Positions 1,749 to 17,516 of a stretch of DNA of 17,516 bases are shown here, one piece after another. How positions within the stretch are numbered: position 1 is the first letter of the stretch; every line of letters starts with the position of its first letter. The position numbers were made by a program, and so were the translations under genes. The notes below the pieces were generated by a model. That model did not search any database, was not told the DNA's origin, and saw only the letters and a program-made list of their open reading frames with translations. The DNA comes from a virus (lineage: Duplodnaviria; Heunggongvirae; Uroviricota; Caudoviricetes), in IMG/VR virus record IMGVR_UViG_3300045988_103075, positions 1 to 17,516 of that record; one strand, given 5' to 3'.

Positions 1749-4508
1749 TTATACCTGCGCCACGTTATACCATGTCCCGTTAATGTATTTCTGAACCGGT
1801 CTGTAATATACACCACCAATGTTATCGGCAGAGTTTGAGCCGGTATCCTGAACAATAATGCCGGAATATACACACCCGGACGGTGCCTGATGTGTCCATG
1901 TCATGCCATTGTTCGCAGGTTTGTATGTGGCAGCACCACCAAGCCGGATATCCCGGACATAGCGGGAATCAAAGTTACCGTAATCCGAGGGATTAACACG
2001 CCCCGTAATATTTATGGTTTTATTACTTTGAATACTTCCCGAGACAAAGCGCATAACATGGACGCTATTAGCATAAACATCCAGATTACCATCACCATTT
2101 TGTTTAAAGCCCGTGTCATTATCACCCAAAACAATCGAATTACCGCCAAGAGCACTGGATGTTCCTATACCCAGAGCACCATTCAATTGACCACCAGATA
2201 ACGGCAGTGCACCGACATCTCCCGCTGTAGGTTTTCGCGTTGTGGTATAAAACTCAGACCAGTCAGCCTCGAATCCGTAACCGTCACGAGCAGAACGATA
2301 AAAAATACCGCCGTTCTTATAATTAACGCGGAACTGGGCGGCGGGACAACTTCCTTCACCGATATTAAAATGAAGAATTAACGTTGATGCCCCACCAGTA
2401 GTTGCGTTATAGGCTCCGCTACTCCAGTTCCACCCAACGGCTTTATCATTCGCAACGGTGTCTCCTGTTTTTCCTGAAGCAAATGCACCAATATTTTTCG
2501 GCGTCAGGTTAATATCTGATGTTCCATCAAACGAAACGTTATTAATTTTACGGGCTGTTTTCAGCTTTGTTGCTGTCGCCGCATTGCCGGACAGTTCACC
2601 AGAAAGGCCAGCACTGAATGTCTGTTTCGCGCCCCATGTCTGGGCTTCGTCAATGATTGGTACTCGTCTTGCTGTGATCGTGCGGCTTCCCGGATTTCCT
2701 GAAATACGCACCATAAAAAATCGGTAGTTCGCTTTACTTACAGTGCTGCGCCATACATGCATTGAGCGCCCCGTACCGGAATCATCACTCGGACCAACTG
2801 CGATGTTTATCAGGTTGCCATCAATGACGCCCCAGTCCATACCGTCGGGAATATTGGTCATATTATCCAGCCTAACGGTTATCAGACTGCCCGGCACAAA
2901 ATCGTAGGTCTGCCAGTCCAGGCTGGTGAGCTTTGCCACAGCACCGCCGATACCCAGATTCAGGGGAAGTGAATACGAGGTGTAGACTTCCCGCCATTCG
3001 CTCCATGAGCTGCCGGTAAAGACGCGCTCAAAGGTGCGGCCTTTAAGGGTTGTACCTGTTCCGGCAGTTGTATAACGCTGCCATACATTAACACCATCAA
3101 ACCGCCTCAACACTTCCAGAATGCCGAGTACAGTCACGCCGTTTCCGTCCAGTACTGGACCGTTGGTCGCTTTACCTGTAACGCTGTAAATACCTGGTGA
3201 GGTTACATCATTCAAATCACCTTCGTAATAACGACTCTCTGACTGATGACCGACTCTTAACCACGGTTCCCACTGCGGATTTGATGCATCCCAGCTTGCC
3301 GCAAGGCAGCGGACATACATATTTCCACGGCGAGTGGTATAACGTTGCGTTCTTCCATAATTTCCGCCTTCGAGGATCTCAAGCATCCCCTGAGCAAAGC
3401 CGCCTTCCTCTGGATAATTGCGTTCATATGAAGCTATAGCCGAGCTACTGTTACGCCATAAACCAAGATGTTCGGCGGCTCCAAGCGTATTCAGGTCTAT
3501 AGTCGTACTCAAAGGGCGGGTAGCTGATTGAGTGTGACGCCATATGCCCCACGGACCATCAGAGCCATTCCACTTATTGGCGAGTCTGCGTATGTATACA
3601 TTGCCGTCTCTCGTGGTGAAGCGTTGCGTACCTGCAAAATTGCCGGCAGCAAAAACCTCAAGCACACCGACAGCATTATCTTCCGGGAAATTTTTCTCCA
3701 GTGTTGCGTTAGTTGAGGTAGTTTTAGACCAGATTCCCAGATAAGCCTTAACGGGACCAAATGTATTCAGATCAGCATCAAGCGGCATTTCGCCATTGTT
3801 TTTCATAAACGTCAGGCTGGTAACGCCAACATTGTCCAGAAAAGCGTCCTTATCTGGAATATCGCCACCGTTCTGGTCTTTCTGCAGACGTTTCTCAGCA
3901 TTGTCATAGGCTGCTTTTACTGCCTTTGGCGTTGCAGCCTGCTTTTCACTGGTGCTGTTTGTTGCACTGCTTAACTGAGTAAAACCTTTTTCTGTCAGCG
4001 TGGCGTCAGGATGGCGGCGGGACTGCTCATGCTCTGCGATTTTGTCATCGACGTAATCCTGCGTCGCCATCACTGTGCTGGCATCAATACTCAGCTCAAC
4101 GGACGCCACGTTGCTGAGAATAATAACCATGCGGCAGGTCTGCGCACGTCCGGAGCCTTCAGCCAGTTCTGGCTTATAGCTTTCTGCCATGTTGGATACC
4201 GCAATCAGTGTTCCGGCATCGTCATACAGACCAAGCTCACGCATCCAGAAGCCGCCCACTTCTGGCGGAACAACCAGTTCAGCCACGATATAGTTTTTAT
4301 TCTTGTTATCCACACTGACTTTATTCAGTGCATGACGCCAGACTTCATGCACCAGTTTCGTCTGACCGGCATCCGGCACCGGCAATTGGCCATTACCGTC
4401 ACCCACAGCCATTGCAGACAGGTTTACTTTTTTCCCGCCGGGAACAGTGGCGGCTGCCAGCTTCGCGGCTCCGGCAGTAGTGATAACGGTTTTAAATTTC
4501 GTGCTCAT
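1749..4508 (-). CDS. H: Tail fiber protein (P2 gpH-like), 919 aa, conserved N-terminus with a long divergent repeat-containing C-terminal region
   Basis: N-terminus MSTKFKTVITTAGAAKLAAA... matches the P2 gpH N-terminal baseplate-attachment region as recalled. The gene is followed by G. Confidence 0.9.
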   Translation of the reverse strand: MSTKFKTVITTAGAAKLAAATVPGGKKVNLSAMAVGDGNGQLPVPDAGQTKLVHEVWRHALNKVSVDNKNKNYIVAELVVPPEVGGFWMRELGLYDDAGTLIAVSNMAESYKPELAEGSGRAQTCRMVIILSNVASVELSIDASTVMATQDYVDDKIAEHEQSRRHPDATLTEKGFTQLSSATNSTSEKQAATPKAVKAAYDNAEKRLQKDQNGGDIPDKDAFLDNVGVTSLTFMKNNGEMPLDADLNTFGPVKAYLGIWSKTTSTNATLEKNFPEDNAVGVLEVFAAGNFAGTQRFTTRDGNVYIRRLANKWNGSDGPWGIWRHTQSATRPLSTTIDLNTLGAAEHLGLWRNSSSAIASYERNYPEEGGFAQGMLEILEGGNYGRTQRYTTRRGNMYVRCLAASWDASNPQWEPWLRVGHQSESRYYEGDLNDVTSPGIYSVTGKATNGPVLDGNGVTVLGILEVLRRFDGVNVWQRYTTAGTGTTLKGRTFERVFTGSSWSEWREVYTSYSLPLNLGIGGAVAKLTSLDWQTYDFVPGSLITVRLDNMTNIPDGMDWGVIDGNLINIAVGPSDDSGTGRSMHVWRSTVSKANYRFFMVRISGNPGSRTITARRVPIIDEAQTWGAKQTFSAGLSGELSGNAATATKLKTARKINNVSFDGTSDINLTPKNIGAFASGKTGDTVANDKAVGWNWSSGAYNATTGGASTLILHFNIGEGSCPAAQFRVNYKNGGIFYRSARDGYGFEADWSEFYTTTRKPTAGDVGALPLSGGQLNGALGIGTSSALGGNSIVLGDNDTGFKQNGDGNLDVYANSVHVMRFVSGSIQSNKTINITGRVNPSDYGNFDSRYVRDIRLGGAATYKPANNGMTWTHQAPSGCVYSGIIVQDTGSNSADNIGGVYYRPVQKYINGTWYNVAQV

Positions 4509-5954: not shown

Positions 5955-6302
5955 TCAACTCACAGGGATGGTTAACGAAAGTGGCTGGCCGGTGTCGTTG
6001 TGCTGGCCGGTTAACGTGACCGTCATTCGCCCGTCAAAACTGCGCGCCGTGGTGACGGATGACAGGGTGACGCGGGGTTCCCATTTCAGCACCGCCATGT
6101 AACTGGCGACCTTAATCTGCAACTCAAGCGCCGGGGTCTGCGGCTGGTCAATCATTGACGCCAGCAACGAGCCGTAATCACGACGCATCACCCGTGAGCC
6201 GACCGGTGTGCGCAGGATATCGCCGATACTCTGGCTGATATGCTCAAGGTCAGTGACAGTCAGGCCATCACTGCGATTCATTCCGAGATAACGCGCAGTC
6301 AT
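5955..6302 (-). CDS. W: Baseplate assembly protein (P2 gpW-like), 115 aa
   Basis: Protein MTARYLGMNRSDGLTVTDLEHI... resembles P2 gpW as recalled. Its start overlaps the V stop as ATGA. Confidence 0.9.
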   Translation of the reverse strand: MTARYLGMNRSDGLTVTDLEHISQSIGDILRTPVGSRVMRRDYGSLLASMIDQPQTPALELQIKVASYMAVLKWEPRVTLSSVTTARSFDGRMTVTLTGQHNDTGQPLSLTIPVS

Positions 6303-6934
6303 AGAGGTCCCCCTGTTGTGCCGCCGCTGTCGCCGGGGTGTTTATGGGTATGCAGTACCTTACCGTTTGATGAGAGTTCACCGCCGGTATGCGCGATGTT
6401 GCCGCGCATCGTCCCGCCCTTCTGCACTTCCAGCGTGCCGGTAGTCAGTTTGTTGGTGCAGACCACTTCCGGTGTGTCCAGGGTGACGCGGGTTGATGCT
6501 TTCACCGTGACCACCGGCACCGTGGCAGTAACAGAATCAGAAGCCATCACGCTGGCCGTTTTAATTCCGCTTGCCGTGAGTGCACTGGTTTCGGGTTCAT
6601 ACTCAATCACCGCCCCGTCAGGGAAACGGATATGCAGGGCATCCTCCGACGCAGACGGCGCGGGGTTATCACCGGAATAAATCCCCGGCAGAACGAACGC
6701 CGTGTCGAGTTCACCGCCCACGGCCAGAATCAGCACCTGCTCCCCCACGGAAGGTGCCCACCATGTGCGCGAACGTCCGGCGCGATGGGTCAGCCACTGA
6801 AGCCAGTCGGTACACATGCCGCCGGTCTGCACACGGCAGCGACCGGCGTTAAGGTCGGTTTCGACGATAATGCCGGTGCGAATCATGTTGCGCAGTACGC
6901 GCGCGAGTTCCTGAATACTTGATAATGTGCTCAT
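6299..6934 (-). CDS. V: Baseplate spike / assembly protein (P2 gpV-like), 211 aa
   Basis: Track ORF 6299..7003 trimmed to the ATG at 6934..6932, giving MSTLSSIQELARVLRNMIRTG..., which matches the P2 gpV N-terminus and length as recalled. No strong SD seen upstream. Confidence 0.85.
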   Translation of the reverse strand: MSTLSSIQELARVLRNMIRTGIIVETDLNAGRCRVQTGGMCTDWLQWLTHRAGRSRTWWAPSVGEQVLILAVGGELDTAFVLPGIYSGDNPAPSASEDALHIRFPDGAVIEYEPETSALTASGIKTASVMASDSVTATVPVVTVKASTRVTLDTPEVVCTNKLTTGTLEVQKGGTMRGNIAHTGGELSSNGKVLHTHKHPGDSGGTTGGPL

Positions 6935-6980
6935 ATGACAATAATGGGGAACATATGCTCGAAAAACTATTGCAACCCGT

Positions 6981-6998
6981 TGTATCATTTTCGGCACA
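6981..6998. promoter_or_regulatory. Perfect TGT-N12-ACA dyad, candidate Ogr/Delta-type late-activator site in the V upstream region
   Basis: TGT (6981..6983), 12 nt, ACA (6996..6998). This is the dyad described for P2/P4 late promoters centred near -55. Geometry is imperfect: the centre is only about 55 nt from the V start codon. Confidence 0.35.
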
Positions 6999-7017
6999 AC
7001 CAAGAAGGAGCCGAAGC

Positions 7018-7761
7018 ATGGATAAATATCAAATCTGGGAAAAACAAAAAGACACCATCGCCCATAAAGAATATTTAAAAATTTCCGACACCAATTTACT
7101 TGGACATATACACATTGCCAATTATGAGGTGATTCAAAGTGAATTAAGCAAATTCAACTCTCCTGAAATTGTATTCCACTACTCACTTAATAGAAATGAA
7201 TTAAAAAAACAGCACATAAATATATCAAGACATTTTCTCAACTATATCTCCTCAGCATTATCATTTAGAGATTCAACGCGTAATCTACATAAAATCAATG
7301 TATTAAATATTGATGATATTACCAATAAATCCAGAGAAATCATCAATGAAGAATTTTTAAAAAATCCAATCATAAAATTAATGGAAGATTTAAGAAACAT
7401 CCTAACCCATCAAAAAATGATCTCCCCATTAATATCATCATTTATGCACCTCCAGAAAAAAATAAACATACACGGATTTGCATTTAAGATTGAAACCATA
7501 CTGGAGAATGACCGGCTTTCTGGTAAATCAAAAGAATACCTGAAGTCAACAGAACAAAAAAATTTATTCATCTTGCCGATAATAGAGGAATACCAATACA
7601 CAACTCTTAAATACCAGCACTGGCTTTTAGCTTGTATCTACAATGCTCATCAAAACACATATCCAGAATATTGGGAAGCAAGAAAAAACATAATGGACGT
7701 CTGGGGTGGAGATATCCAACTAATACCTGAAGAGAGTACCCTCACTTATTTGACCAGATAA
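7018..7761 (+). CDS. Hypothetical protein, 247 aa, AT-rich cargo gene between V and S on the opposite strand, with a HEPN-like R-N-x3-H motif
   Basis: ATG at 7018 is preceded by AAGGAG (7005..7010) with a 7-nt spacer. A sampled line counts about 27% GC. Motif RNILTH at codons 126..131 (7393..7410). Stop TAA at 7759..7761. No family recognised. Confidence 0.75.
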   Translation: MDKYQIWEKQKDTIAHKEYLKISDTNLLGHIHIANYEVIQSELSKFNSPEIVFHYSLNRNELKKQHINISRHFLNYISSALSFRDSTRNLHKINVLNIDDITNKSREIINEEFLKNPIIKLMEDLRNILTHQKMISPLISSFMHLQKKINIHGFAFKIETILENDRLSGKSKEYLKSTEQKNLFILPIIEEYQYTTLKYQHWLLACIYNAHQNTYPEYWEARKNIMDVWGGDIQLIPEESTLTYLTR

Positions 7762-7794
7762 CAATCTAATTAGCTCACAAACATAAGACACCTT

Positions 7795-7826
7795 GGCCAC
7801 GATATTTTATCGTGGCCTTATATGAT
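7795..7826 (+). terminator. Putative intrinsic terminator after the 7018..7761 cargo gene
   Basis: 9-bp inverted repeat GGCCACGAT (7795..7803) / ATCGTGGCC (7809..7817) with 5-nt loop, followed by TTATATGAT. The U-tract is weak. Confidence 0.4.
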
Positions 7827-7974
7827 AAAGCGACTACCTTCGATGAGTCCTTATAACTCTCATCCACTGCACATTTTCAAGTTACAATTAAAGTTCATTT
7901 AGTTGAAATATAAAAAGGATGCCGCAAGAGGATAATGGCGATATTTCATCAATAAGGCGCAAGAAATGGCACAA

Positions 7975-8427
7975 CTAACGGTCGAGGTGAGCCAGGATAA
8001 TCTCTTCAATCATCTGCACATCCTCACCGGTAAAGCCGAGCAGAGGACGCGCCGGATAATCAATTTTCTTACCGTCTTTCCGGTTTTCTTCCGACAGACC
8101 GAACTGATGCACGCTGGCGATTTTCGGTGACTTCCCGCCGTAAAACTCCATTGATGCCTGTTCCGGGCTGGCGCGGATATGCAAAAAACGACTGGTGATA
8201 AGTTTCGCAAACATTTTTCGCTTAACGCGACCGGTCTTTTTTCTGGCGCTCTGCTGCTGGCGTGGCGCGTAGGGTGTGCCGTCCGGGGCTTTCTGTGCCA
8301 TCACCCGGCGCTGCTGACTCTGCCGCAGACGTTTCGCCAGTTCGGCGCTCAGTCGCCGACGCCCTGACGGTGACTGCGATTCAATAAGTCCGGTCAGCCG
8401 GTCTTCAAAACGCTTAAACTCATTCAT
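7975..8427 (-). CDS. S: Tail completion protein (P2 gpS-like), 150 aa
   Basis: Protein MNEFKRFEDRLTGLIESQSPSGRRR... resembles P2 gpS as recalled. Overlaps the R stop by 8 nt. Confidence 0.9.
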   Translation of the reverse strand: MNEFKRFEDRLTGLIESQSPSGRRRLSAELAKRLRQSQQRRVMAQKAPDGTPYAPRQQQSARKKTGRVKRKMFAKLITSRFLHIRASPEQASMEFYGGKSPKIASVHQFGLSEENRKDGKKIDYPARPLLGFTGEDVQMIEEIILAHLDR

Positions 8428-14345: not shown

Positions 14346-16118
14346 ATGACCATCACCACAGACACCACTCTTTTACACGACCCGCGTCGTCAGGCGGCGC
14401 TGCTGTACTGGCAGGGGTTTTCCGTGCCGCAGATTGCCGCCATGTTGCAGATGAAACGCCCGACGGTGCAGAGCTGGAAACAGCGCGACGGCTGGGACAG
14501 CGTTGCCCCCATCAGCCGTGTCGAAATGAGCCTGGAAGCGCGGCTGACCCAGCTCATCATCAAACCGCAGAAAACCGGCGGTGACTTCAAGGAAATTGAC
14601 CTGCTGGGACGCCAGATTGAACGACTGGCACGGGTAAACCGCTACAGCCAGACCGGCAACGAGGCAGACCTTAATCCGAACGTCGCTAACCGCAACAAAG
14701 GCGGGCGTCGCAAACCGAAAAAGAATTTTTTCAGTGACGAAGCCATCGAAAAGCTGGAGCAGATTTTCTTTGAGCAGTCTTTCGACTATCAGTTGCACTG
14801 GTATCGCGCCGGGCTTGAGCACCGCATCCGCGATATCCTGAAATCCCGCCAGATTGGCGCAACGTTTTATTTTTCCCGCGAGGCGCTGCTGCGCGCCCTG
14901 AAAACCGGTCATAACCAGATTTTTCTGTCGGCCAGTAAAACGCAGGCGTATGTGTTCCGCGAATACATCATCGCCTTTGCCCGTCTGGTGGACGTTGACC
15001 TTACCGGTGACCCGATTGTCCTGGGCAATAACGGCGCAAAACTGATTTTTCTCGGCACCAACTCCAACACCGCGCAGAGCCATAACGGCGACCTGTACGT
15101 CGATGAGATTTTCTGGATCCCGAATTTTCAGGTACTGCGTAAGGTGGCATCAGGTATGGCCTCACAGAGTCACCTGCGTTCGACCTATTTCTCCACCCCG
15201 TCCACGCTGGCGCACGACGCCTACCCGTTCTGGTCGGGTGAACTGTTCAACCGGGGACGTGCCAGCGCCGCCGAACGTGTGGAAATCGACGTCAGTCATA
15301 ACGCCCTTGCCAGCGGGCTTCTCTGTGCGGACGGCCAGTGGCGGCAGATTGTCACCATTGAGGACGCCCTGAAAGGCGGCTGCACGCTGTTCGACATTGA
15401 GCAACTCAAACGCGAAAACAGCGCCGACGATTTTAAAAACCTGTTCATGTGTGAATTTGTTGACGACAAGGCGTCGGTGTTCCCGTTCGAGGAGCTGCAA
15501 CGCTGCATGGTCGACACGCTGGAAGAATGGGAAGACTATGCGCCGTTTGCCGCCAATCCGTTCGGCTCACGCCCGGTCTGGATTGGTTACGACCCGTCAC
15601 ACCGTGGCGACAGCGCCGGATGCGTGGTACTGGCACCGCCGATGGTTGCCGGTGGCAAATTCAGAATACTTGAGCGTCACCAGTGGAAAGGCATGGACTT
15701 TGCCACCCAGGCTGAATCCATCCGCAAACTCACCGAAAAATACAACGTCGAATACATCGGTATTGATGCCACCGGCCTCGGTGTCGGCGTGTTCCAGCTC
15801 GTGCGCTCGTTCTATCCTGCCGCGCGCGACATCCGCTACACGCCGGAAATGAAAACCGCAATGGTGCTCAAGGCAAAAGACGTTATCCGCCGTGGCTGTC
15901 TGGAATATGACGTCAGCGCCACCGACATCACCAGCTCGTTTATGGCTATCCGCAAGACCATGACCAGCAGCGGACGCAGCGCCACTTATGAGGCCAGCCG
16001 CAGCGAGGAAGCCAGCCACGCCGACCTCGCCTGGGCGACCATGCACGCCCTGTTAAATGAGCCACTCACCGCCGGTATCAGCACCCCGCTGACATCCACC
16101 ATTCTGGAGTTTTACTGA
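14346..16118 (+). CDS. P: Terminase ATPase (large) subunit (P2 gpP-like), 590 aa
   Basis: Track ORF trimmed to the ATG at 14346 (MTITTDTTLLHDPRRQAALLYWQGFSVPQIA...), preceded by GGCGAGG. Length matches P2 gpP as recalled. Divergent from O. Confidence 0.9.
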   Translation: MTITTDTTLLHDPRRQAALLYWQGFSVPQIAAMLQMKRPTVQSWKQRDGWDSVAPISRVEMSLEARLTQLIIKPQKTGGDFKEIDLLGRQIERLARVNRYSQTGNEADLNPNVANRNKGGRRKPKKNFFSDEAIEKLEQIFFEQSFDYQLHWYRAGLEHRIRDILKSRQIGATFYFSREALLRALKTGHNQIFLSASKTQAYVFREYIIAFARLVDVDLTGDPIVLGNNGAKLIFLGTNSNTAQSHNGDLYVDEIFWIPNFQVLRKVASGMASQSHLRSTYFSTPSTLAHDAYPFWSGELFNRGRASAAERVEIDVSHNALASGLLCADGQWRQIVTIEDALKGGCTLFDIEQLKRENSADDFKNLFMCEFVDDKASVFPFEELQRCMVDTLEEWEDYAPFAANPFGSRPVWIGYDPSHRGDSAGCVVLAPPMVAGGKFRILERHQWKGMDFATQAESIRKLTEKYNVEYIGIDATGLGVGVFQLVRSFYPAARDIRYTPEMKTAMVLKAKDVIRRGCLEYDVSATDITSSFMAIRKTMTSSGRSATYEASRSEEASHADLAWATMHALLNEPLTAGISTPLTSTILEFY

Positions 16119-17152
16119 TGAGCAAGAAAAAAGGGAAAACACCGCAACCTGCGGCAAAAACAATGACCGCCAGCGCCCCGAAAATGGAGGCATTCACCTT
16201 TGGTGAGCCGGTGCCGGTACTCGACCGCCGTGACATTCTGGATTACGTCGAGTGCATCAGTAACGGCAGATGGTATGAGCCACCGGTCAGCTTTACCGGT
16301 CTGGCAAAAAGCCTGCGTGCTGCCGTGCATCACAGCTCACCGATTTACGTCAAACGTAATATTCTGGCTTCAACGTTTATCCCGCACCCGTGGCTTTCCC
16401 AGCAGGATTTCAGCCGCTTTGTGCTGGATTTTCTGGTGTTCGGTAATGCGTTTCTGGAAAAGCGTTACAGCACCACCGGTAAGGTCATCAGACTGGAAAC
16501 CTCACCGGCAAAATATACCCGCCGTGGCGTGGAGGAGGATGTTTACTGGTGGGTGCCGTCCTTCAACGAGCCGACAGCCTTCGCGCCCGGCTCCGTGTTT
16601 CACCTGCTGGAGCCTGATATTAATCAGGAGCTGTACGGCCTGCCGGAATATCTCAGCGCCCTTAACTCTGCCTGGCTGAATGAGTCGGCCACGCTGTTCC
16701 GCCGCAAGTATTACGAAAACGGCGCACATGCCGGATACATCATGTACGTCACCGATGCCGTGCAGGACCGCAACGATATCGAAATGCTTCGCGAAAACAT
16801 GGTTAAGTCGAAAGGCCGCAATAACTTTAAAAATCTGTTTCTCTATGCCCCGCAGGGGAAAGCCGACGGCATTAAAATTATCCCCCTCAGTGAAGTGGCG
16901 ACGAAGGACGATTTTTTTAATATCAAAAAAGCCAGCGCCGCTGACCTGCTGGACGCACACCGCATCCCCTTTCAGTTGATGGGTGGCAAGCCGGAGAACG
17001 TCGGGTCACTGGGTGATATTGAGAAAGTGGCAAAGGTCTTTGTCCGCAATGAGCTAATCCCGTTACAGGACAGGATTCGGGAAATAAACGGCTGGCTCGG
17101 CCAGGAGGTCATCCGCTTTAAAAACTACTCACTGGACACTGACAACGGCTGA
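16118..17152 (+). CDS. Q: Portal protein (P2 gpQ-like), 344 aa
   Basis: Protein MSKKKGKTPQPAAKTMTA... Start overlaps the P stop (TGATG). Length matches P2 gpQ as recalled. Confidence 0.9.
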   Translation: MSKKKGKTPQPAAKTMTASAPKMEAFTFGEPVPVLDRRDILDYVECISNGRWYEPPVSFTGLAKSLRAAVHHSSPIYVKRNILASTFIPHPWLSQQDFSRFVLDFLVFGNAFLEKRYSTTGKVIRLETSPAKYTRRGVEEDVYWWVPSFNEPTAFAPGSVFHLLEPDINQELYGLPEYLSALNSAWLNESATLFRRKYYENGAHAGYIMYVTDAVQDRNDIEMLRENMVKSKGRNNFKNLFLYAPQGKADGIKIIPLSEVATKDDFFNIKKASAADLLDAHRIPFQLMGGKPENVGSLGDIEKVAKVFVRNELIPLQDRIREINGWLGQEVIRFKNYSLDTDNG

Positions 17153-17322: not shown

Positions 17323-17341
17323 GTGCTTTCCCCGCCTCGCC
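17323..17341. other. P2-type cos, the 19-nt cohesive-end sequence
   Basis: Reverse complement of 17323..17341 is GGCGAGGCGGGGAAAGCAC, which I recall as the P2 cohesive end. It lies next to Q as in the P2 map. Identity is from memory. Confidence 0.7.
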
Positions 17342-17471
17342 CGCCCGCTTCATGGGGCGGTTTTAATGCAGTTGCATGAGTACGTTGAATCCTCGCTAGC
17401 TGTGACGTAAAGCAATGAGGACGCATAACTTTGACACATGCAAAACCATGCACCTGATACATTCATAGTTA

Positions 17472-17516
17472 CTGTCTCTTATACACATCTCCGAGCCCAC
17501 GAGACATCTCAGGATC
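17472..17516. other. Illumina Nextera adapter (Tn5 mosaic end plus read-2 adapter), a sequencing artefact and not genomic
   Basis: Exact CTGTCTCTTATACACATCT (17472..17490) followed by CCGAGCCCACGAGAC (17491..17505), then 8 nt resembling an index and ATC at the window end. Confidence 0.9.

Follow-up and report, generated by a model that had tools for sequence, protein, structure and literature searches.

The final 45 nt of the sequence analysed here (a stretch of 17,516 nt from an IMG/VR record assigned to the Caudoviricetes, hereafter referred to as the window) are almost certainly not biological in origin. They are Illumina Nextera adapter, which was probably sequenced by read-through, escaped trimming and was built into the assembly. 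The tail is identical to the synthetic construct over its whole length, homology to related genomes stops exactly at 17471, and the relatives continue from this point with a different sequence. The finding is correct and at the same time ordinary, adapter contamination being already well known in public assemblies. The DNA that precedes the tail is genuine and belongs to a P2-like prophage, and the break falls in the defence hotspot of that prophage.

Composition of the 45-nt tail

Read directly from the + strand, positions 17472-17516 of the window are CTGTCTCTTATACACATCT-CCGAGCCCACGAGAC-ATCTCAGG-ATC. A direct string test found the whole tail to be an exact prefix of the construct formed by the Tn5 mosaic end (ME), the Nextera Read-2 site, index N715 and P7. 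The Illumina Nextera / Nextera XT adapter is thus identical to the tail at all 45 nt, with no difference. The individual parts are:

17472..17490, + strand: Tn5 mosaic end (ME), CTGTCTCTTATACACATCT, 19 nt, synthetic; exact match, single copy in the window
17491..17505, + strand: rest of the Nextera Read-2 primer site, CCGAGCCCACGAGAC, which is the reverse complement of GTCTCGTGGGCTCGG; exact match
17506..17513, + strand: i7 index N715, ATCTCAGG (PMC7589761, Appendix B)
17514..17516, + strand: ATC, the start of the P7 flow-cell sequence ATCTCGTATGCCGTCTTCTGCTTG, by prefix test

A preliminary description of this DNA, made from the letters alone, had placed a Nextera adapter in the last 45 nt, and this identification holds at exactly those positions. 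As components it had named the ME, part of the Read-2 site and an index-like 8-mer. All three are present, but their lengths sum to 42 nt; the ATC that completes the tail, the start of P7, had been omitted. The 8-mer proved to be more than index-like, as ATCTCAGG is the catalogue index N715 (PMC7589761, Appendix B). In the same appendix the N715 primer is printed as CAAGCAGAAGACGGCATACGAGAT-CCTGAGAT-..., and in its reverse complement ATCTCAGG is immediately followed by ATCTCGTATGCC... (ATCTCG...), so that the final ATC is explained. P7 is 24 nt long, and the window leaves room for no more than 3 nt of it; these agree with the start of P7, although 3 nt alone carry little weight.

The adapter is on the + strand, occupies the 3' terminus of the window and points outward. 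The Read-2 transposase adapter is present here in reverse complement, the form expected in the 3' part of a read crossing a short insert. A search of both strands, in which up to 3 mismatches were allowed, returned one copy of the 19-nt ME in the window. Other adapter fragments (Nextera R1, TruSeq, P5, P7) were not found elsewhere in the window.

The presence of an ME might also be explained by a real cellular insertion, at 17471/17472, of a synthetic transposon derived from Tn5, as in mutagenesis of the EZ-Tn5 type. The 19-nt ME also forms the ends of commercial Tn5 transposomes. In the 26 nt after the ME, however, the Illumina Read-2 site is succeeded by an i7 index from the catalogue and by the first bases of P7, and there is no transposon payload. 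An insertion of this kind is refuted because these 26 nt are Illumina sequence; the second, inverted ME that would belong to it is also absent from the window, and we regard the explanation as extremely unlikely.

The ME was engineered from the natural ends of Tn5, and the ME of the tail has the 19-nt length and most of its positions in common with the ends of Tn5 and IS50. When counted by hand against the sequences that we take to be the natural outside end (CTGACTCTTATACACAAGT) and inside end (CTGTCTCTTGATCAGATCT), it differs from them by 3 and 4 mismatches, respectively. This partial similarity would be the basis for reading the tail as a natural IS50/Tn5 end, or else as a chance resemblance. 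Such an origin, less likely still than an engineered insertion, is refuted by the exact match of the 45 nt to the synthetic construct. In addition, no IS50 sequence follows the ME, the number of ME matches expected by chance is 0 (200 dinucleotide-preserving shuffles), and the 45-mer was not found in any of 5,426 complete E. coli genomes.

Adapter sequence in public records

The 34-nt core of the adapter, to which the index is attached, is present in at least 120 unrelated IMG/VR viral contigs. Among the matches listed, 123 of 124 occurrences are situated 34-76 nt from the end of the locus and point outward, so that these contaminated contigs resemble the window in both the terminal position and the direction of the adapter. 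The 8-mers found after the core, among the matches listed, are those of the Illumina i7 catalogue set (TAAGGCGA, CGTACTAG, GGACTCCT and others). Two unrelated IMG/VR contigs among the matches listed (L013 and L050) have the index of the window, ATCTCAGG, behind the 34-mer, and the bases past the index agree with P7 in 98 of the 101 terminal examples among them. The 34-mer was also detected in 43 GenBank phage records, with hosts that include Escherichia, Streptococcus, Listeria, Bacillus and Acinetobacter. Because unrelated organisms carry the core only at contig ends (apart from the internal cases considered below) and with laboratory indexes attached, it is a library construct. The warning in the preliminary description that any similarity within the tail would be spurious is well founded in view of this distribution.

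Among the matches listed, the public tails cluster at 47-49 and 76 nt, and the 45 nt of the window fall within the overall range of 34-76 nt. Tail length was also considered as an indicator of the k-mer size used by the assembler; this was dropped, as 45 fits no common k.

One of the 124 occurrences among the matches listed is internal, at 3701-3734 of an IMG/VR contig of 190 kb (L015). The 34-mer is likewise internal in several GenBank records of T4-like Escherichia phages (H74, H85-H87), deposited as 'complete' genomes, and in two public records the internal 34-mer sits under annotated genes. In the T4-like phages and in L015, the internal 34-mer suggests adapter-mediated misjoins. These cases lend themselves to an alternative reading of the window, in which the adapter would be an internal chimeric join, with unrelated fragments stitched together via shared adapter k-mers, and the window would end inside the join. 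Against this stand the terminal position of the remaining 123 occurrences, the range of their tails, which includes 45 nt, and the fact that the window stops 3 nt into P7. A join of this type is very unlikely here, and would in any case still be the same artefact.

As a matter of data hygiene, the 45 nt should be masked or trimmed, and the window should be regarded as ending where the assembly broke off, rather than at a boundary of the phage or prophage. An unmasked adapter would give rise to false similarity to contaminated records, namely the 43 GenBank phage entries and the IMG/VR contigs, of which there are at least 120. Several ORFs are open through the adapter (window 17435-17516), reading ...VSYTHLRAHETSQD, ...CLLYTSPSPRDISG and LLSLIHISEPTRHLRI on the + strand and ILRCLVGSEMCIRDS... 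on the - strand. Gene callers that allow edge-partial genes could report adapter-derived peptides from these ORFs.

A P2-like prophage and the break at 17471

What is genuine in the window corresponds to the late-gene half of a Peduovirus (P2-like) genome and runs in the opposite direction to the standard P2 map. In a comparison with Peduovirus P22H1, 93% of the window aligns at 98.7% identity, and the gene order from tail sheath to portal is the same. Close relatives are found as prophages in thousands of E. coli chromosomes. The features that lead up to the break are:

16118..17152, + strand: portal gene Q (344 aa), after which no further gene is complete; ORF, annotated as 'phage portal protein' in matching prophages
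17323..17341, no strand assigned: P2 cos site GTGCTTTCCCCGCCTCGCC, the reverse complement of the 19-nt cohesive end GGCGAGGCGGGGAAAGCAC; one exact match, 0 expected
17342..17379, no strand assigned: conserved backbone to the right of cos, independent of cargo, from comparison of P2-like prophages
17380..17471, no strand assigned: cargo-specific leader of 92 nt, the last genuine bases, from comparison of E. coli genomes

The assignment of the portal gene agrees with the Pfam family Phage_portal, which matches a protein identical to that encoded in the window. For the cos site, we take GGCGAGGCGGGGAAAGCAC to be the P2 cohesive-end sequence, as is established for this phage. Linear Peduovirus records start at cos, and position 1 of these records aligns with window 17340/17341. 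The genuine sequence of the window runs 130 nt beyond cos. Since the contig reads through cos, the template must have been either an integrated prophage or DNA in circular or concatemeric form, and 17471 does not correspond to a virion end.

The preliminary description had also held that the true sequence past 17471 is missing, and the E. coli genomes bear this out. Matches to the last kilobase of the window, or to its last 175 nt, all end at 17471, and none enters the final 45 nt. In 12 of 12 inspected relatives, which have the preceding sequence in common with the window at 96-100% identity, the equivalent of 17471 is followed by TTACTTTGTAAAAA[C/A]ATAAAAAAAGGAAATCCC..., and the mosaic end is absent from all 12 of these loci. 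The 35-nt junction had no match in three public collections (viral, genome and metagenome contigs).

We suggest the following origin for the tail. In the library, a fragment of P2-like E. coli prophage DNA produced by tagmentation would have ended at base 17471, and if the insert was shorter than the read, sequencing would have continued through the ME and the rest of the Read-2 primer site into index N715 (i7) and the first bases of P7. The adapter would have been left untrimmed on this read, which the assembler may have taken as its final extension before it stopped. The stop might be due to a coverage gap in an AT-rich island, where the adapter read was left as an unclipped tip; alternatively, the assembler might have extended along the adapter branch, which led no further. 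AT-rich coverage loss was rejected as the sole cause of the break. AT-richness is insufficient in this respect because an island of ~900 nt with 29% GC, at 7000-7900 of the window, was assembled without difficulty.

The 5' edge of the window also cuts a gene, as the window opens 73 nt inside the FI tail sheath gene (1-73, - strand; ATG at 73-71). No adapter was found at this 5' end. A stretch of low GC content (0.35) at 74-1217 separates the start of the FI tail sheath gene from the tail fibre assembly gene (1218-1745, - strand, Caudo_TAP). It occupies the position of the second P2 hotspot, Z/fun, and contains an ORF (403-996, - strand, 197 aa) that matches phrog_3829, of unknown function. An island of lower GC content (0.29) is located at 6900-7950, between baseplate gene V (6299-7003, - strand) and gene S (7975-8427, - strand). 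This island is missing from Peduovirus P22H1, and its position is presumably that of the orf30 moron site in P2. It includes an ORF (6919-7761, + strand, 280 aa) that matches phrog_12680 from residue 34 onwards, also of unknown function. Neither the 403-996 nor the 6919-7761 ORF had a match in Pfam or PADLOC.

Predicted cargo of the cos-proximal hotspot

Rousset et al. 2022 (PMC9122126) described a cos-proximal defence hotspot of P2-like phages, flanked by gpQ and gpA. The genuine sequence of the window ends inside this hotspot, 130 nt past cos. In contrast to the hotspot described by these authors, the window retains only the 92-nt leader; the cargo is absent and has to be deduced from relatives.

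Genomes with a portal identical to that of the window carry a variety of cargos, including GmrSD_N+HEPN, SIR2_2+DUF87, HATPase_c_3+DNA methylase, DUF7380 and AAA_13. Past cos, just 33-46 nt are common to the window and ten genomes in which the portal is identical and the cargo different; the conserved backbone therefore ends near 17379. Many phage and plasmid matches stop at 17376-17379.

A search of 5,426 complete E. coli genomes detected the 92-nt leader in 20 of them; it had no match in phage records. About 200 nt downstream of the leader, the same gene of 2,220 nt, encoding a 739-aa 'AAA family ATPase', is found in 12 of 12 inspected genomes, and in all 12 it is followed by the replication endonuclease gene (gene A). 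In Pfam the ATPase is matched by AAA_13 (E = 5e-102), and in PADLOC by PDC-S06, a candidate defence family (E = 1e-252); its C-terminal end shows a weaker similarity to PrrC. An example is the locus at 5331-7550 of L002 (E. coli CFSAN061770), and 11 other loci carry the gene as well. The predicted cargo is carried by 20 of the 5,426 complete genomes, and its location is invariably a P2-like prophage, with cos on one side and gene A on the other. In the relatives, the GC content of the continuation is 29%, as against 53% in the window. The term PDC-S06 is absent from a recent paper on the P2/P4 hotspot.

Judging from these relatives, the lost sequence is most likely an island of ~2.4 kb with 29% GC that would encode the 739-aa AAA_13/PDC-S06 ATPase, a candidate defence protein, and would be followed by gene A. 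Because the hotspot is hypervariable, there is a small chance that the lost cargo differs from this ATPase, in which case the adapter would hide an undescribed prophage-borne defence gene. This is unlikely, as the 92-nt leader was accompanied by the ATPase gene in each of the 12 genomes inspected.

The cos-proximal defence hotspot is the part of a P2-like prophage that varies most and is of greatest biological interest, and it is this part that is lost at the break. Surveys of defence cargo that make use of this contig would therefore wrongly score the hotspot as empty or unknown.
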